From IMG/VR virus record IMGVR_UViG_2880372215_000004: a DNA stretch of 64,000 bases; one strand, given 5' to 3'. Origin of the DNA: a virus. Lineage: Duplodnaviria; Heunggongvirae; Uroviricota; Caudoviricetes. Numbering within the stretch: the stretch's first letter is position 1; each line of letters begins with the position of its first letter. The notes under the pieces are model-generated. The model saw only the letters and a program-made list of their open reading frames with translations, was not told where the DNA came from and made no database searches. Of the stretch, positions 1,984 to 29,299 are shown piece after piece. A program made the translations under genes and the position numbers.

Positions 1984-2793
1984 TTATTCCTCTGAATTAT
2001 CGATTACACTGTATTCCCCGGTTAATACAGAGGAATCTGCAGGATCGATTGTCAGTGGTTCCTTTTCATCCATTGATACTGCACGCTGGATCTCAATTGA
2101 TACGGGCAGATATTTGAACAGGCGACGAATAGCCGTTTTCTTTGCCATTTCTTCCCAGTGAGTTACCCACGGCCCGTTATTACCAGCTTTACTCTGGCTG
2201 CGCACCAGCTCAATCTGTTTGCGCGTCATAACTTCAAACTGAGTACCTCCGTCTTTCAGTCTTGCGACAGCATAGACGTGGGTAACAGGGGCATCTTCGT
2301 TTTCTCCTGGGCGGTGTATTAACTTTTCATCAAGGCCAAATTCGAAATTAAACTCGTCACCTTCACGGACAACACGGGCTGACAAGCTGGCGATTTGACC
2401 TGAACGGCGAGCCAGATCAATCATGCCTCGATAGCCAATGATTAGCTGAACGTTTTTTTTACCGCTCTTTTCGTTTTTATTACCAAAAGGCAGTAAATAT
2501 GCATGACCGAGGGCGCTACCGGGCTCAAGTCCGAGCTGTGAACACTGTACGATTGCACTGACAAAACTCATAGTGTCACAGTTTCCTAACGCCGGAACTT
2601 TACGAATTTCTGTGGTGGCGATACGGATCATACGTTCAGCCGTCATATGGCGTGGAAGAGCTGCTGCCAGTTGCTCTTTCATTGATGGCTGGTTAATAAA
2701 ACTAATCACGTCGTTATTTTTAATTGCTGCTGGTGCACGGTTTCCCTGAGTTTTTTGCAGATCGGCTTTTGCGATTGGTGGTTGCTTAGTCAT
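1984..2793 (-). CDS. recT: Recombinase RecT (single-strand annealing protein), 269 aa
   Basis: [23 protein letters not shown]...SVIDNSEE is nearly identical to K-12 RecT as I recall it. Start set at the internal ATG (Met20 of the tracked ORF), which overlaps the recE stop by 8 nt as in Rac. Confidence 0.95.
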
Positions 2794-5386
2794 TTGCATA
2801 TTCCTTAGCCCAGCGGGGCAGTGATAACGTCTTAATAGCTGGCCATTCATCGGTATTGAGGCAGTCAGCCAGGGTTCGCAGATTGCGGTGATATTCCAGC
2901 TGACCTGCCAGTTTTGCTTCTTCGCCCATCATGAAAATTTCAACCGGATAACGTCCGCATTCAATAGTTGTGCTGGCAACCAGAAAAACGAAAGTTGGCT
3001 GCACTCCAAACTGTGCTTCATAACCGTCACTGTAGAATGCATCCTGAACGTGATAGCGGTAGTCGTAATAAGCGGTTTTGAATCGTTGAATATCCGCCGT
3101 AGTTTTCACGTCCATGATCCAGTGAAATTCAGGGATAATTTTGTCCGGACGGCACCGACACAAAATTGCTGTTTCAGGATCTTCCCAGTAAATTGATGAT
3201 TCAGCGTGTCCGGCGCTTTCAACAAGCCATTGCCCCAGCGGCAAAGCCATAACGCTCTGATACATGAGTTCAATTTTCCGGCCTTCTTCGGCAGTGATAA
3301 CCGTTTTTCCTGTGCTTGCGCATTCCCTCAGAAACGCTTTCTCTTCTTCTTTTCCGGAGTTTGTCCGGCGGTTAAATTCAGGTGCTACGATAAAGCGGTT
3401 ACTGAATTCTTCCGGCTCAAGTACCCGGCAGTGGAAAGCGGTTCCTAAATCGAGCGTTTTTGTCTTTGTGGTGTCCACGGGGGCATTTTTACGCCACAAA
3501 TACAGTGCCGGAGTATCAGCAATGTCATCGAGCTGAGACTTACTGACACCGGGACCCGCGTGGTAATTCTCATTCGAAATTCCGTAATAAATACCTGGCT
3601 CTATGTCTTCTACGATTACGGGATCTGCGACTTCGCCAGTTTCATCACTGCAATCGCGATGCGGATCGCTGCCAGCATTCTCATTGTGCGGATGTTCAGC
3701 GCCTTCCATTTCCTCCGGATCATTTTCCTTAGCTTCAACCTGACTCTCTTCATCGAATGTTTCCTGGTATGTTGCGTCGCCCATCACCGCACCACAGTCA
3801 GGGCAGTTATCCCCGCCAGTCTGGCCGCAGGCATTGCAGGCTATTTCCGGTTCCTGTTGCACTACTGGCTCAGGTTGATTCATATCCGGGCTGGTTTTTT
3901 CCGTTTCTGGCTGGTTCTGGTACACACAATCGCGAGTCTGGATCCCCTTTACCCATTTCGGATCGTTCGGGTCGCTAATTCCGTCAACAAATTCACCACG
4001 TGATGCAGCAAGCAATTTATCGGCATCGACAGGATTTTTTGATGGAATGTTTTTCCGGGCTTCATGGAGTTCTGCCCGCAGTTCCTGATATTTCGCATCA
4101 ACAGAATTTACCTGTGACTGAGCATCCAGCGGCTGCGTGTCCTGATGATGTTCAGTTGCGTCCGGTTCCATTGTTTCAGCCTCTCCCTGTTCAACTGCCG
4201 TTGTTCCAGATGGTTGCGGTTTTTCTTCATCATCCTGTTTTCCTTCTTCTGTTACTCGCTGCGGCATCGGGGCAGAGGAGCGACCGCAGGCAATATCCAC
4301 GATTTCCGGATCAGGGTTGGCATGATCGGTTTCAGTCAGTACTTTGTTCAGATATTCAGTGACGTGCGCGGGGATGACCTCGATCCCAATTGGTGCTTCT
4401 TTTACGGACGCAACCACGATGGCGCGGGAATAATCCAGCCCGCCAGGCATGGTGATGAATTTGTCGCGGAAAACAGAAAAGGGCGGTTTATTTTCAGCGA
4501 TAATTTCCTCAATGCGTTTAGCGTGTGCCGGATGAAGGTTATAGATGTCCAGATCCATTGAACGGGCCAGTACGCCAGTGGCTACGTCGCGCGCCAGTGA
4601 CGTCAGATCGTGTACGAAACCTTCGCCGCGATCGGTGAGGTTTCCGCCGCCAGCATTAGCACCGGAAGCCGTGCGAGTGATGTGTGAAACACGATTACCC
4701 TTCATCCACTCTTTTGTCAGCAGTCCTCGATCGGTGTAGTCAGCGTTCAGGTATGCTTCGAAAAAAGCAGTTATCAGTCCCAGGTTTGAATTACCAGGAT
4801 TAGGGAAAACTTTGTCAGTGTCACGAACCAGTTTGTGGAGTTCGCGAATTTCCAGCGGGTCGAGCAGGCTGGTTTTGTGGGAAACAGCCAGGGCAGTAAC
4901 AGCCGGTAGTTCTTCAGCCCGAGCAATGTGTAATGCCTGGAGTCCGTCGCGTGAAACGTGCGTTACCGGTTTTTCGCTGCCGTGTTGAGCAAGCCAACGA
5001 ATGGGCAGTTCCTGGCCAGAAATTGGGAGTAGCATATTCTCCTCAATCTCAGTCATGTCTTCGCCGTTGACGTTGGTATTGCCTTGATAGTGAGCGTTGT
5101 CTGGTGCTGCTCCCGGTTTTAGTTCCCATGTCATGGAGTCTTTGCTGAGTTGATAGCGTTCACTCCAGGTAAAATCGATCTCACCTTCAGCGGGCAGGTC
5201 ATTAACGACAGGAAAATTCGTGGCAACAGCTTTAAAATAGCTGCTCAGTTTTTTACCTGACTTAACGATCAGGTAGTCCAGAGTGGCACAGGTCGATTCA
5301 AAATCGTTGCTTGCCCACAGGACGACGTCAGGTTCACCGGATGATTTTTTCGCTTTCCGTAACAGGAAGAGTGGTTTTGTGCTCAT
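2786..5386 (-). CDS. recE: Exodeoxyribonuclease VIII RecE, 866 aa
   Basis: 866-aa ORF starting [32 protein letters not shown]. The C-terminal nuclease domain precedes recT. Length and sequence match Rac RecE from memory. Confidence 0.95.
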
Positions 5387-8960: not shown

Positions 8961-9379
8961 TGTAACGCTGCGAGCGTTACAAGGTGAAAACAAATGGCTT
9001 CAAACTGGATAAAGCTCGAAGTTATTACGCCGGATAAGCCGGAAATATTCAGGCTTGCTGAGATTCTGAATATTGATCCAGATGCCGCATTAGGGAAAGT
9101 CATTCGCTTCTGGGCATGGGCGGATCAACAAATGATAGACGGTAACGCAGAGTGTAACGCTCGCGGCGTTACAAAAAGTGCAATAGATCGCATCACTTTT
9201 ATGGCTGGTTTTGCTGATGCGTTAATTCAGGTTGGATGGCTGGTCGAAACTAATGGTGTGTTGTCGCTTCCTAACTTTGAGCGCCATAACGGGAAAAGCT
9301 CTAAAAAACGGGCGGTTACAAACGAGAGAGTAACAAAAATACGAGAACTGAAACGAAAAGGTAACGCTGCCAGCGTTAC
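8961..9379. repeat. Three copies of a GTAACGC-N3-5-GCGTTAC palindrome (candidate replication origin / initiator binding sites)
   Basis: TGTAACGCTGCGAGCGTTACA (8961-8981), TGTAACGCTCGCGGCGTTACA (9153-9173) and GTAACGCTGCCAGCGTTAC (9361-9379). Extra half-sites at 9142-9148 and about 9315-9335. The copies are spaced ~190-210 bp across the 5' half of ydaU. Confidence 0.5.
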
Positions 9380-24871: not shown

Positions 24872-25341
24872 GCATAAACCGAATGCTTTCCGCGTTTACC
24901 GTTATTCTGCTGGTGGTCTGTGGTGCGCTTAGTCTGGGGCTGAATCATTACCGCGATAACGTCATCACCTACAAAGCGCAGCGCGATAAAAAAGCCAGAG
25001 AGCTGGAGCTGGCAAACGCAACCATTACTGATATGCAGGTGCGCCAGCGCGATGTTGCTGCGCTCGATGCAAAATACTCGAGGGAATTAGCCGATGCGAG
25101 AGCTGAAAATGAAACTCTGCGTGCTGATGTTGCCGCTGGTCGTAAGCGCCTGCGGATCAACGCCACCTGCTCCGGTACCGTGCGTGAAGCCACCGGCACC
25201 TCCGGCGTGGATAATGCAACCGTCCCCCGACTGGCAGACACCGCTGAACGGGATTATTTCATCCTCAGAGAACGGTTGATGACAATGCAGAAGCAGCTGG
25301 AAGGGGCACAGGACTATATCCGCACTCAGTGCCTGAACTAA
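24868..25341 (+). CDS. Rz: i-spanin Rz, ~157 aa (GTG start inferred)
   Basis: NHYRDNVITYKAQRDKKARELELANATITDMQVRQRDVAALDAKYSRELADA...LADTAERDYFILRERLMTMQKQLEG is close to lambda Rz from memory. Confidence 0.8.
   Translation: MSINRMLSAFTVILLVVCGALSLGLNHYRDNVITYKAQRDKKARELELANATITDMQVRQRDVAALDAKYSRELADARAENETLRADVAAGRKRLRINATCSGTVREATGTSGVDNATVPRLADTAERDYFILRERLMTMQKQLEGAQDYIRTQCLN
25109..25279 (+). CDS. Rz1: o-spanin lipoprotein Rz1, embedded in Rz (+1 frame)
   Basis: MKLCVLMLPLVVSAC has a lipobox. It is followed by the proline-rich VKPPAPPAWIMQPSPDWQTPLNGIIS, as in lambda Rz1. Confidence 0.8.
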   Translation: MKLCVLMLPLVVSACGSTPPAPVPCVKPPAPPAWIMQPSPDWQTPLNGIISSSENG

Positions 25342-25673
25342 GTTTTGCTGATGCGCCGTATCGTCGCTGTATTCCCTCATTAACAGAGACCGCAGCCCGA
25401 CAGGGAGACTCCTCTGCGCGAGTGTGCGGGGAGAATCAAAAACGATACGCACCGGGGTTTACCGCGTTAACGGAGCGCGGCGTTGTCCCCTCATGGTCGC
25501 TGGTTCGGTGCGATGGTGGAAGAAACCGGACGATGTGTTACCTCGCAAGACCTGTTATGTCATGTGTCTGATTTGTGATTTAAGTCGGATAATTGTCGTT
25601 GCCATTAAGCAGAGGATTGATGGCCGACAGGGTGGCATTGTTAGAATAAGACTTATTCTTATCTGTGCCGGGA

Positions 25674-26006
25674 ATGAAAATGAAAAGAAATCTTCCGTTA
25701 ATTATTTTGTTGTCTTCTCTGGTTATGGGCTGTACGCAACATAAAACAGATATGCCCCGACAGTTGGTTAAGGCATTACCACAATATCCGGCCTATGCAG
25801 CGGCAAATTATATAAAGGGACGGGTTGATGTGAAGTTTGATATTGGTGCTGATGGTACTGTCACCCGAATTGAGTTTATCCGTTCAGAGCCGCACCATCT
25901 GTTTGATGAGCAGGTTGTAAAGGCGATGGCAAAATGGCGATTTGAGAAGGACAGGCCGCGTAAAGGCGTGAAGAAAACGTTTATCTTTAGTCCTTCTGCA
26001 CCCTGA
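25674..26006 (+). CDS. Lipoprotein with TonB C-terminal-like domain, 110 aa (moron)
   Basis: Signal and lipobox MKMKRNLPLIILLSSLVMGC. TonB_C-like PQYPAYAAANYIKGRVDVKFDIGADGTVTRIEFIRSEPHHLFDEQVVKAMAKWRF. Confidence 0.7.
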   Translation: MKMKRNLPLIILLSSLVMGCTQHKTDMPRQLVKALPQYPAYAAANYIKGRVDVKFDIGADGTVTRIEFIRSEPHHLFDEQVVKAMAKWRFEKDRPRKGVKKTFIFSPSAP

Positions 26007-26137
26007 TTATTTCATCAGAAATTAATTATCACTCTGTTGTTATTCTGTACATTCCGGCTGGGTAAGTCTTGTTCCGCCGGGTATGAAGATGAAATATTGT
26101 TGGAGGACAGTGGGTACCTGCTCCTGTAACCGAACGT

Positions 26138-26338
26138 TCATTTCTCGTTATTTGTCATGCTGGCCGGACGCAGATGCGTTGCATCTGTTGCCAGCCTTCT
26201 CCTGCAGGCTTCAATAACCCACGCTGAAAAGTTACCGGAACCTTTATGTTCAAGGGCGATATTGATCTGTTCAATCATGTGATTGGGGAAACGGATATTG
26301 CGGGTTGTGGTTCTGCGGGTCCGGTTTTTCGATGACAT
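26138..26338 (-). CDS. DUF3950/YlcI-like small DNA-binding protein, 66 aa
   Basis: MSSKNRTRRTTTRNIRFPNHMIEQINIALEHKGSGNFSAWVIEACRRRL has a ribbon-helix-helix-like pattern. Common just upstream of terminase modules in EHEC prophages (from memory). Confidence 0.6.
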   Translation of the reverse strand: MSSKNRTRRTTTRNIRFPNHMIEQINIALEHKGSGNFSAWVIEACRRRLATDATHLRPASMTNNEK

Positions 26339-26379
26339 ATTTATTTCCTTTACTGATTGCCATATGACGGGGATTTTAC

Positions 26380-26745
26380 ATGGCTGAGCTTCGTACACTC
26401 CAGAGCAGAATCAAAACACTGAATACCCGACGGGTGAATATTCTGAAGGGTGAACAGCGTCGTGTCAGTGGCAGTGCACGTGTTTCCCTCAAGCGTCATA
26501 TCTGGCTCAGGGATGCCGGGCAGTGCTGTCTCTGTGGTCGTGTGGTTGACCTCTGTGACAGTGAACTCGATCACCGAATTGCACTTCAGTTCGGTGGTGG
26601 TAATGAGGAGACGAATCTCTGGACGCTCTGTACCGAATGCCATCGACAAAAGTCTGCTCGTGAAGCGGCGGGTGGTATGCCGGACCCGACGCTGCCGGAG
26701 GTGTCCGGAGGTAGTGGCAGAGCGGACGACATCATCGGACTGTAA
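26380..26745 (+). CDS. HNH endonuclease (terminase-associated), 121 aa
   Basis: CCLCGRVVDLCDSELDHRIALQFGGGNEETNLWTLCTECH is an HNH motif. It precedes terS/terL as in HK97-like cos phages. Confidence 0.85.
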   Translation: MAELRTLQSRIKTLNTRRVNILKGEQRRVSGSARVSLKRHIWLRDAGQCCLCGRVVDLCDSELDHRIALQFGGGNEETNLWTLCTECHRQKSAREAAGGMPDPTLPEVSGGSGRADDIIGL

Positions 26746-27033: not shown

Positions 27034-27597
27034 GTGCTGACAACGCAAAAACGAAAATTTGCGCTGGCGCTCATGTCCGGGAAAAACAAAACAGCGTCAG
27101 CCATTGCCGCTGGTTATTCGGCGAAGACCGCCAGGGTTAAAGGCTCGCAGCTGGCAAAAGATCCGGAGGTGCTTGCGTTTATAGCCCGTAAACAATGCGA
27201 GACGGTGGAGGTGGATGAGGTTCCTGTTTACCGGCAGAAAAAATCAGAGCAGGAGGATAAACCCCGTCGCCGTGAGGCGGCTGCAATACCACAGCCGGAC
27301 GAAAACAATCCGGAGATGCCACCGTCCGCGGTGATGTCTCCTGGTATTGAATATATGGAGGATGGTCTTCCCGATCCGGTGAAAGCGATGGGGCGTCTTC
27401 TGGTGGAGAACATTAATACCGACCCCAGGCTGGCGCTGGATGCGGCTTATAAGCTGGCGCAGTTCACGCACCATAAAAAAGGGGATGCCGGTAAAAAATC
27501 GGCAAAAGGTGACGCGGCGAAAAAAGCGGCTAACCGTTTTGCGGTGCCACCACCACCCCGCCTGGTGGTGAATAATGATAATGAGGGCAACGGATGA
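27034..27597 (+). CDS. Terminase small subunit, 187 aa (GTG start)
   Basis: MLTTQKRKFALALMSGKNKTASAIAAGYSAKTARVKGSQLAKDPEV is an HTH of the Terminase_2-type small subunits. Overlaps the terL start (ATGA). Confidence 0.8.
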   Translation: MLTTQKRKFALALMSGKNKTASAIAAGYSAKTARVKGSQLAKDPEVLAFIARKQCETVEVDEVPVYRQKKSEQEDKPRRREAAAIPQPDENNPEMPPSAVMSPGIEYMEDGLPDPVKAMGRLLVENINTDPRLALDAAYKLAQFTHHKKGDAGKKSAKGDAAKKAANRFAVPPPPRLVVNNDNEGNG

Positions 27598-29236
27598 TAC
27601 CTGTGTGGAGCACGGCCTGCCCGGACTGGGCAGAGCGCCTGAAAAAGGGGCTGTCGATTATTCCGGCTCCGATTTATCCGGACAGGCTGCACATGCACTG
27701 GCGATTTTTAAACAACTGCGATTGTGGATGCACCGGGTAGCCCGACATTCGGGGAGTCCTGCGCACCGTGGGTGTTTGACCTGGTGGCGGCCCTGTTTGG
27801 CTCCTACGATGCGCAGACCGGTGTTCGCCATATCAAGGAAGTTTTATCCTTATCCCCAAGAAAAACTCGAAGTCCACGCTGGCTGCGGGATCATGATGAC
27901 GGCGCTGTTACTGAACTGGCGGCAGGCGGCGGGCTACACCATTCTGGCCCCGACCGTGGAGGTGGCGGCTAACGCCTTCAACCCTGCCAGGGATATGGTA
28001 CGACGGGACGATGATCTGGATGACCTCTGTCAGGTGCAGACACATATCCGGACCATCACCCATCGGGTGACGGACACCACCCTGAAGGTGGTGGCTGCCG
28101 ATCCGAATACGGTGTCCGGTATCAAGTCCGTGGGGACGCTGATTGATGAACTGTGGTGTTTGGCAAGCAGTACAAGCGGAGACATGTACGTGAAGCCATC
28201 GGCGGCTTGCCTCCCGCCGGAAGGGTTTGTGGTGTATACGACCACCCAGTCGAATGAACCGCCCGCCGGGGTGTTCAGACAGAAACTGCAGTATGCCCGG
28301 GATGTCGCGACGGCAAAATTCATGATCCGCACTTTCTGCCGGTGATTTTTGAGCATCCTCCTGAAATGGTGGAAAGCGGGGCTCACCTGCTGATGGAAAA
28401 CCTCGCCATGGTTAACCCGAATCTCGGTTATTCGGTGGATGAGGCTTTCTGTACCGGGAGTACCGTAAAGCCCGGGAGGCTGGTGAGGAAGCATTTCGTG
28501 GCTTCATGTCAAAACATGCCAATGTGGAAATTGGTCTTGCCCTGCGTTCTGACCGCTGGGCGGGCGCGGATTTCTGGGAGCAGCAGGGCAGGCGCGTCAG
28601 CCTGGACGATATCCTGCAGCGCGCTGATGTGGTGACGGTGGGGATTGACGGCGGGGGCCTGGATGATCTGCTGGGAATGTACGTGATTGGCCGTGACAGG
28701 GAAACCCGCGAATGGCTGGGCTGGGGCCATGCCTGGGCGCATGAAACCGCGGTGGTCGACGGAAGAGCGAGGCGTCCCGGTTTCAGGATTTGTGCCTGTG
28801 GAGATATGACGATTGTCCGTCGGTCGGGGATGACACGGCGGAAGTGGCGGAATATGTGCGTCGCATTCATGAGGCTGAGTTACTGGACATATCGGTATTG
28901 ACCCGTCAGGGTGGGGCAGATTCTGGATTCACTGGCGGAAGCCGGGATCCCCGACGGAATGTGGTGGGGATAAGCCAGGGCTGGAAACTGGGCGGGGCCA
29001 TTAAAACCACCGAGCGCAAACTGGCTGAAGGGGTGCTGATGCATGGTGACCAGCCCCTGATGGCCTGGTGTGTCGGCAATGCCCGGGTGGAGCCTAAAGG
29101 TAACGCCATTCTTATCACCAAACAGGCCAGTGGACGGGGAAAAATTGACCCGCTGATGGCGCTGTTCAATGCGGTCTCCCTGATGTCCCTTAACCCGGAA
29201 CCGAAAAAGAAAGAATATGCGGTTTTTTTCATATAA
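27594..29236 (+). pseudogene. Terminase large subunit, broken into many frames
   Basis: TerL-like peptides are scattered over all three frames. They include MIPVWSTACPDWAERLKKGLSIIPAPIYPD (frame of 27594), QAAHALAIFKQLR, DAPGSPTFGESCAPWVFDLVAALFGSYDAQTGVRHIKEV, FILIPKKNSKSTLAAG, IMMTALLLNWRQAAGYTILAPT..., IFEHPPEMVESGAHLLMENLAMVNPNLGYSVDEAF, MSKHANVEIGLALRSDRWAGADFW...GIDGGGLDDLLGMYVIG and ...GISQGWKLGGAIKTTERKLAEGVLMHGDQPLMAWCVGNARVEPKGNAILITKQ. Confidence 0.8.
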
Positions 29237-29299
29237 CCCTGTTCACACTGTAACCATCATGAACCGCTGCGGCGGTTTTTTTATTTTCAGGAGGCTGAT

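Follow-up and report, generated by a model that had tools for sequence, protein, structure and literature searches.

A lipoprotein with a lone TonB C-terminal domain in a moron slot downstream of phage lysis genes

The TonB_C lipoprotein gene and its product

The DNA analysed here is a stretch of 64,000 nucleotides (nt) from a Caudoviricetes virus (IMG/VR record IMGVR_UViG_2880372215_000004), referred to below as the window. The subject is a small plus-strand gene that directly follows the lysis cassette of this phage, a lambdoid prophage of E. coli. The product of 25674/25680-26006 is confirmed to carry a lipoprotein signal, and its mature part is a TonB_C domain. Its features are as follows.

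25674..26006, plus strand: TonB_C lipoprotein coding sequence, 110 amino acids (aa) from the ATG at 25674 or 108 aa from the ATG at 25680; DNA 100% identical to the WP_000828070.1 loci
25674..25733, plus strand: lipoprotein signal peptide and lipobox (LVMG followed by Cys20, with Thr at +2), read from the sequence, the Cys being invariant across the family
25755..25991, plus strand: TonB_C domain, residues 28-106, equivalent to Escherichia coli TonB 153-231, by Pfam, phmmer, AlphaFold2 and Foldseek

The open reading frame (ORF) spans 25665-26006, with its stop codon at 26004-26006 and in-frame ATGs at 25674 and 25680. The ATG at 25680, preceded by GGGAA at 25670-25674, is the RefSeq/PGAP start (WP_000828070.1, ‘TonB family protein’, 108 aa), and the ATG at 25674, which gives 110 aa, is the start picked in the initial annotation of this DNA. 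That annotation described a 110-aa lipoprotein with the lipobox LVMGC, and the sequence agrees: the signal peptide MKMKRNLPLIILLSSLVMG is followed by the lipobox Cys20 (codon 25731-25733) and by Thr at +2. It has a positively charged n-region, a hydrophobic h-region and a lipobox of the form [LVI][ASTVIM][GAS]C, which together predict lipidation. The lipobox Cys is invariant in 13 of 13 aligned family members, and a lipobox is also present in 9 further short relatives. Among the aligned relatives the +2 residue is Ser, Ala, Thr or Val and never Asp. Under the established +2 rule, a lipoprotein without Asp at this position is sorted to the outer membrane (OM) by the Lol system, and the +2 Thr of the window protein therefore predicts anchoring in the OM.

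The mature part had been described as looking like a TonB_C domain, and profile, sequence and structure comparisons all bear this out. The Pfam family PF03544 matches with an E-value of 5.5e-15 and 56 bits (gathering cut-off 24.6), and TIGR01352 scores 56.5 (cut-off 27.1). A phmmer search of the Protein Data Bank places C-terminal domains (CTDs) of Salmonella and E. coli TonB at the top (8rd6, 1u07, 1xx3, 2gsk_B and 2grx_C, ~1e-16). Structure prediction, which the initial annotation had named as a possible refutation of its reading, likewise gives the TonB_C fold. The AlphaFold2 model, for which 13 family sequences were aligned, reaches a predicted local distance difference test (pLDDT) score above 93 across residues 30-105, with helices at 40-44 and 78-85 and strands at 49-57, 62-72 and 96-105, the last being a complete β3. 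The top Foldseek matches of this model are 1u07_A, 2gsk_B and 2grx_C, with a root-mean-square deviation (rmsd) of 1.1-1.4 Å to the E. coli TonB CTD and target template modelling (TM) scores of 0.88-0.91. A search of BFVD viral structures found no match at E <= 0.001, a weak negative, as prophage proteins may be filed as bacterial.

The phage protein shares with the TonB CTD (PF03544; E. coli TonB 153-233; 1U07, 2GSK, 2GRX) the order of helix, two strands, helix and β3, at 40-42% identity. It differs from TonB in having neither the N-terminal transmembrane anchor nor the Pro-rich rod, but instead a lipoprotein signal peptide and a predicted OM anchor, and in missing the short C-terminal tail beyond β3. 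We rejected the possibility that it is a TonB energy transducer proper: it is only 110 aa long and begins with a lipoprotein signal peptide, and its score against full-length TonB equivalogs (NCBIfam PRK10819; ~73 bits) is far under the cut-offs of 265-448.

The segment of TonB that aligns with the phage protein, 153-231, is the segment present in the complexes 2gsk (BtuB-TonB) and 2grx (FhuA-TonB), in both of which the Ton box of the receptor pairs with TonB β3 (Braun review, PMC11658791). When TonB numbering is mapped onto the family from the phmmer alignment to these chains, the residues equivalent to P161, Y163, P164, A167, V176, D181, G186, V188, P198, F202, V206, A209, W213, R214, E216 and P220 are invariant, and the Q162 equivalent is retained in the window allele. 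The elements with which TonB contacts Ton boxes, namely the P-x-Y-P motif, the WRF/YE segment and the whole of β3, are thus kept.

Distribution and family

A 411-bp region containing the gene occurs at 483 places in 416 of 5,426 complete E. coli genomes, all of them chromosomal, and the gene is found in Stx1a-converting phages, in phage JLK-2012 and in Lys8385Vzw. An allele of 71% identity is carried by the classical phage 21 (CPT_21_73, ‘TonB C-terminal domain protein’), by ev017 and Perceval, and by records named ‘Partial tonB-like membrane protein encoded within prophage CP-933N’, and an allele of 40% identity follows the lysis cassette of Klebsiella prophages. The slot after the lysis genes therefore carries the gene in three diverged lineages: the window/Stx1a type, the phage-21 type and the Klebsiella prophages. 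Homologues of the same architecture also lie outside prophages, in Klebsiella, in Raoultella and in one Salmonella Choleraesuis assembly. The chromosomal neighbours in Klebsiella and Raoultella are lacI, a 138-aa ORF and a glycine-zipper lipoprotein, with no transporter gene adjacent. This diversity was reached with diverged alleles as queries; a scan of genome contigs gave 4 loci, and the first IMG/VR scan gave near-identical copies only. One phage-21-type allele, with its upstream region, was found in an assembly of the actinobacterium Modestobacter excelsi (locus L008, NZ_SJEX01000172.1, 418 bp), most likely as contamination of that assembly.

Every short (97-133 aa) single-domain relative fetched by a profile search of 1.84 billion representatives has a lipobox. 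Across the mature domain, the phage protein is 50-53% identical to the chromosomal lipoproteins of Klebsiella and Raoultella, 49% to the Salmonella copy and 40-42% to E. coli and Salmonella TonB. The chromosomal proteins (P0029, P0036 and P0039 among them) have the same lipobox and single TonB_C domain in 104-111 aa and share with the phage protein the motifs YPxYAxxN, SEPxHLFD and KWRFE; they differ in being non-prophage and, in Klebsiella and Raoultella, in carrying canonical Fur boxes. Sequence comparison thus assigns the phage genes to an established lineage of ~110-130-aa TonB_C lipoproteins. A recent capture of the 3′ end of a host tonB gene was considered and rejected, because the phage protein is closer to the chromosomal lipoprotein paralogues than to TonB.

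Pairwise comparison by the Nei-Gojobori method of the window allele, a variant of 89% identity, the phage-21 allele and a fourth allele gave a ratio of non-synonymous to synonymous substitution (dN/dS) of 0.10-0.19, with dS up to 1.1-2.2. It is an intact gene under purifying selection rather than a degenerate piece of tonB. As a separate observation, a frameshifted C-terminus (...TIYLYAVTSLMLPGREG...) replaces β3 in many database members of the 71% allele (P0010, P0012, P0013, P0018, P0019 and P0021), one such cluster having 130 members, which suggests recurrent inactivation in some phage-21-type lineages.

The identity of the protein is ordinary and already recorded in databases, where it is annotated as ‘TonB family protein’, ‘TonB C-terminal domain protein’ or ‘partial tonB-like membrane protein’. 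A full-text literature search found no functional study of the phage gene or of the chromosomal TonB_C lipoproteins, and the genome announcement of phage 21 passes over it without discussion. Architecturally, the protein is a variation on known kinds: it consists of a single TonB_C domain that is lipid-anchored and phage-borne, in a family with Fur boxes.

The insert and its surroundings

The gene sits within a short insert between the lysis cassette and the terminase genes, in the following setting.

25525..26129, plus strand: moron-like insert of ~605 bp, comprising the gene, ~150 nt of its own upstream DNA and ~120 nt downstream
24883..25341, plus strand: Rz i-spanin, Pfam PF03245 (1.9e-49), the upstream neighbour of the insert
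25094-25279, plus strand: Rz1 o-spanin, embedded in Rz, PF06085 (7.7e-21), completing the spanin pair
25352..25524, no strand assigned: widely conserved non-coding block that separates Rz from the insert and lies outside the moron
26138..26338, minus strand: ylcI/ynfO-family (DUF3950) gene, the convergent downstream neighbour
26380-26745: HNH gene, downstream of the ylcI/ynfO-family gene
27034-27597: small terminase subunit, downstream of the HNH gene

The insert is bounded by the conserved non-coding block on one side and the 3′ end of ylcI on the other, and its junctions, AACCGGACG and AACCGAACG, are near-repeats. An alignment with prophage L013, which has no copy of the gene, shows the two flanks directly joined, so that there the slot is empty. 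In prophage L012 (E. coli Xuzhou21, 2680-3110) the slot holds other cargo, a 46-aa hypothetical protein, and in other prophages it holds unrelated small membrane peptides. The GC content is 0.42-0.46 within the insert against 0.55-0.58 upstream. The insert therefore varies between presence and absence at a fixed slot and has an atypical composition, as expected of a moron, and small morons have a hot spot at this insertion site. A lom gene is also present in the window phage.

The gene had been placed where lambda carries bor. This holds for the position, as lambda Bor/Iss, likewise an OM lipoprotein, is a moron that lambdoid phages carry between Rz and cos, although Bor is an unrelated protein encoded on the opposite strand. 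It does not hold in the sense of a replacement, because phage 21 carries both genes side by side, with bor (minus strand) immediately upstream of the TonB_C gene (plus strand).

The block at 25352-25524 is an observation in its own right. With ~88-100% conservation it occurs at 4,231 places, distributed over 1,846 of the 5,426 E. coli genomes; it is unannotated, is spread much more widely than the TonB_C gene and is conserved better than the synonymous sites of that gene. It is probably non-coding, because alleles differ by indels of 1 and 17 nt, and it may be a recombination junction or a cis element of the late operon. Its predicted fold is no better than that of shuffled sequences (z-score -0.25).

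Further downstream, the large terminase gene (27575-29255) is split into several ORFs. Relative to the reference prophage L001, there are ~19 gap columns over 2.4 kb and 31 over 12.4 kb, which points either to decay of the prophage or to erroneous indels in the assembly. Over the TonB_C gene region, identity to the reference prophage is 100%.

The palindrome and the upstream region

Upstream of the start codon lie three overlapping sequence features.

25643..25659, no strand assigned: 17-bp inverted repeat AGAATAAG-A-CTTATTCT, read from the sequence
25639..25647, plus strand: candidate extended -10 element TGtTAGAAT, likewise read from the sequence
25645..25663, no strand assigned: best match to the Fur consensus, AATAAGACTTATTCTTATC, 13/19, ending 16 nt before the ATG at 25680

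The initial annotation drew attention to a perfect 17-bp palindrome. The plus strand at 25643-25659 reads AGAATAAGACTTATTCT, with 8-bp arms that are perfectly complementary around a single central A, and the description stands. Taken alone, however, the repeat does not exceed chance expectation, and the phage-21 allele lacks it. For perfect 8-bp arms with a 1-nt spacer, ~1.0 is expected per 64-kb window and 2 are observed. We searched the window for a second copy with up to 3 mismatches and found none, and we rejected a role as a repeated operator of a phage regulator on the ground that this is the sole copy. As RNA the palindrome folds weakly (-4.1 kcal/mol, z -0.9). A structured RNA or riboswitch in the leader was also rejected: Rfam gave no match at E <= 1 over 25200-26450, and neither the conserved block nor the palindrome hairpin has a notable z-score.

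Comparison between alleles gives a mixed picture. The palindrome is kept throughout the window-type clade, including the variant of 89% aa identity (L014), in which the adjacent 15 nt of upstream DNA have diverged, and single-base variants occur in L044 and L080. The phage-21 type has lost the right arm through a 14-nt deletion, even though its gene is subject to the same purifying selection. In the L015 allele, 6 of 8 palindrome pairs are intact and there are two double changes, all substitutions being transitions. We rejected compensatory change as the explanation for these, since about one double change is expected at 36% divergence and only transitions are seen.

The only proximal upstream stretch conserved between window-type and phage-21-type alleles is ATTGTyAGAATAAGAC, and the left arm of the palindrome overlaps the conserved TGtyAGAAT within it. 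From its sequence, TGtyAGAAT could be an extended -10 element; a consensus scanner run over 25200-26450 found no plus-strand -35/-10 pair and no terminator. On balance we lean slightly towards the palindrome being a chance AT-rich inverted repeat that overlaps a -10 region without serving as an operator. A window is expected to contain about one repeat of this kind, the phage-21 allele does without it under the same selection, natural single-base variants break its symmetry, the double changes in L015 do not exceed expectation, and the RNA hairpin is insignificant. What speaks for a function is its full conservation in the 89% variant in spite of the diverged DNA next to it, and its location at the place where relatives have Fur boxes.

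Other sequence features of this kind were seen in the window. A strong match to a sigma-70-like promoter (TTCACA, 16 nt, TATAAT; 11/12) lies antisense within the TonB_C coding region, on the minus strand at 25834-25807. It may be spurious, an intragenic promoter such as AT-rich acquired DNA can contain, or it may give an antisense transcript. In the early region, a 19-bp palindrome, GTAACGCTGC(G/C)AGCGTTAC, is present in two copies 400 bp apart (8962-8980 and 9361-9379). Over the whole window there are 13 perfect inverted repeats with 8-bp arms and a spacer of 0-3 nt against ~4.4 expected, and these could be operators or terminators.

The Fur connection

The palindrome had also been said to resemble loosely an AT-rich Fur-type operator. 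Scored against the 19-bp Fur consensus GATAATGATAATCATTATC and the 7-1-7 motif TGATAATnATTATCA, this wording is accurate, with 13/19 matched at 25645-25663. The match falls to 11/19 when centred on the dyad and is 9/14 on the 7-1-7 motif. There are 26 matches of 13/19 in the 64 kb, and the simulated null probability is ~0.02 per 80-nt upstream stretch of this GC content.

The relatives present much better sites. Upstream of the chromosomal genes of Klebsiella and Raoultella are TGATAATTATTATCA or GAGAATTATTATC arrays that match Fur at 15/19 (null ~0.001), a Klebsiella Fur-type upstream sequence being TTGATAATTATTATCAA. Genes in Klebsiella prophages have TGATAAT-GTTG-ATTATCA, which matches at 14/19 (null ~0.006). 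In both groups the boxes lie 4-18 nt from the ATG, a distance comparable to that of the window site. The phage-21 type, the L015 type and the Salmonella copy match at 10/19 or less. The family of TonB_C lipoproteins therefore appears to have a genuine Fur connection, judged from these predicted sites of 14-15/19 close to the ATG, and any such predicted site in the window copy is decayed or weak, with the dyad off its centre. The idea of Fur control is weak for the window copy itself because the match is 13/19, the palindrome is off-centre and the phage-21 allele has no site. A precedent for Fur-controlled morons is stx1, a classic Fur-repressed phage gene, which is carried by related phages.

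Two further observations concern the form and number of these sites. In the Klebsiella-prophage loci (L176-L207; for example L193, ~1455-1485), the perfect half-sites TGATAAT and ATTATCA are 4 nt (GTTG) apart instead of 1, a spacing that is conserved across alleles differing elsewhere and is an unusual geometry for a Fur site. In the window, just past the stop codon and within the insert, a Fur-like sequence at 26017-26036, AGAAATTAATTATCA, matches 11/14 on the 7-1-7 motif and 13/19 on the 19-mer. It is one of four 11/14 sites in the window, and with a third 13/19 match at 25973 there are three such matches in ~400 bp, as against 26 in 64 kb.

A decoy for TonB and the alternatives

We tentatively propose, with somewhat less than even confidence, that the OM-tethered TonB_C lipoprotein is a decoy that competes with TonB at Ton boxes, the competition itself having been suggested in the initial annotation. 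The gene would be expressed at least from the late operon, because it lies on the late-gene strand with no terminator detected upstream, and a promoter of its own overlapping the palindrome may add to this. In relatives such a promoter would be under iron (Fur) control, which in the window copy would be weak at best. After Lol sorting, the domain would hang on a tether of ~9 residues from the inner leaflet of the OM, which would place it beside the periplasmic face of TonB-dependent transporters. There its β3 would pair with the exposed Ton boxes of receptors and possibly of incoming colicins. Because the protein has neither an N-terminal membrane anchor nor a Pro-rich rod, ExbB-ExbD could not energise it, and a non-energised domain would therefore compete with TonB, acting as a dominant-negative. 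The predicted outcome is less TonB-dependent irreversible adsorption of the T1/phi80 type, less import of colicins and microcins, and less uptake of siderophores and B12.

Precedents exist for the separate parts of this scheme. According to their citation in PMC9841981, overproduction of a periplasmic TonB domain interferes with the import of iron through TonB-dependent systems, inhibiting it (Howard et al. 2001), and both infection by phi80 and killing by colicins are inhibited by a Ton-box pentapeptide. The engineered fragments (Howard, Herrmann, Stratilo and Braun 2001, J Bacteriol 183:5885) are, as that article cites them, likewise a detached periplasmic TonB C-terminal region, but they are artificial, soluble and overexpressed, whereas the phage protein is natural, lipid-anchored and a diverged paralogue. 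From the phage side, Llp of T5, a small OM lipoprotein that jams a TonB-dependent transporter from the periplasmic side, represents an established exclusion strategy (PMC9586334). Llp and Cor (phi80/N15/HK022) are likewise small phage OM lipoproteins acting on a TonB-dependent transporter from the periplasm (PMC9586334), although no relationship in sequence or fold to the window protein was detected, Pfam reporting TonB_C only. The action of Llp is confined to FhuA and relies on reverse allostery on the plug, whereas a TonB_C decoy would recognise Ton boxes in general and would leave reversible adsorption unblocked. The Fur boxes of the relatives lend the decoy reading support, because they tie the family to the iron/TonB regulon.

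Several findings weigh against a decoy. The equivalent of TonB R166 is an invariant Tyr (Y41) in the family, and that of Q160 is Leu35 (25776-25778), a position that varies between L, Y, Q and P, so that the binding specificity may differ from that of TonB. The substitution Q160L in TonB itself restores Ton-box mutants and is the classical suppressor for FhuA, BtuB and colicin M (PMC11658791). That the phage protein has Leu here is a curiosity and carries no evidential weight. The chromosomal relatives appear to be induced at iron starvation, when an inhibitor of TonB would be costliest, and the frameshift in β3 of some phage-21-type alleles suggests that the gene is dispensable. A search of PADLOC-DB matched no defence family at E <= 0.1. 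We also considered and rejected self-exclusion through the receptor of the phage itself, as its tail tip protein J shows no sign of a TonB-dependent receptor. The C-terminus of J is 44% identical to lambda J, and in a spread sample of 40 of the 243 records matching it, the matches were J proteins from prophages in STEC (Shiga toxin-producing E. coli) and of the lambda type, with none recognised as that of an FhuA-using phage.

The iron connection that supports a decoy would also suit an accessory or regulatory partner of TonB-dependent transport that is not an inhibitor and that, at iron limitation, binds particular transporters or signalling domains. It could hold Ton boxes, modulate the turnover or signalling of receptors, or bias scarce TonB among them, and the phage copy would then be a fitness or virulence moron that shifts uptake by the host. 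The canonical Fur boxes at the chromosomal Klebsiella and Raoultella homologues, the good ones at the Klebsiella-prophage homologues, the age of a lineage distinct from TonB, and its family-specific invariants (Y41 in place of TonB R166, N45 and SEPxHLFD) all fit such a role. Nevertheless, transport cannot be energised without a link to ExbBD, no transporter gene adjoins the chromosomal loci, and the only experimental precedent for a detached TonB CTD, as cited in PMC9841981, is inhibition, so that we regard this alternative as unlikely. The setting of the gene could suggest instead an envelope or surface moron unrelated to Ton boxes, in which the TonB_C fold is a general-purpose module that binds, for example, peptidoglycan or another OM protein in the periplasm and alters such properties as serum resistance or OM stability in the manner of Bor/Lom-type morons. 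The gene shares its variable slot with other lysogenic-conversion lipoproteins, phage 21 has bor alongside, the window phage has lom, and elsewhere the slot holds unrelated small membrane peptides. This reading is nonetheless rather improbable: the residues conserved in the family are the Ton-box-binding core of TonB, the relatives' Fur boxes suggest a link with iron and TonB, and nothing pointed to another ligand.

Position could also suggest an accessory to lysis, a late OM lipoprotein that aids disruption of the OM or the timing of lysis. In three phage lineages the gene comes directly after the lysis cassette and lies on the late strand, and it matches PHROG 1267 (1.9e-42), which is labelled as a lysis protein, an Rz-like spanin. 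The phage, however, already has a complete Rz and Rz1, and because these lie just upstream, the label is most simply a positional mis-annotation. Pfam gives TonB_C only, with neither Rz (PF03245) nor Rz1 (PF06085), and we rejected an identity as a spanin on these grounds. The C-terminus, FIFSPSAP, has no membrane segment, unlike that of a unimolecular spanin, related prophages with an empty slot such as L013 lyse without the gene, and homologues occupy non-phage chromosomal loci. A role in lysis is accordingly very improbable, and competition with TonB at Ton boxes remains our preferred, if tentative, reading.

Implications

Taken to its full extent, the proposal is that of a natural, phage-borne, OM-tethered dominant-negative TonB, which would sequester the Ton boxes of receptors and of incoming colicins, would let the lysogen or infected cell broadly exclude TonB-dependent phages and bacteriocins by one generic mechanism, would be tied to iron in at least part of the family, and, in the chromosomes of Klebsiella and Raoultella, would act as a brake or defence under Fur control. 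In this full form we consider it doubtful. The Fur-boxed chromosomal relatives pose the question of why a cell would induce a detached TonB domain during iron starvation.

If the protein does act as a decoy, prophages would possess a receptor-independent shield against an entire class of phages, colicins and microcins, and its price in iron and B12 uptake would be tunable. Pathogenic E. coli harbour many Stx1a phages with the gene, and the classical phage 21 has it too. Such a shield would bear on host range in phage therapy, on how bacteria compete in the gut by means of colicins and microcins, and on the use of TonB as a target for antibacterials, since nature would already have made an inhibitor of the interaction between TonB and the Ton box.

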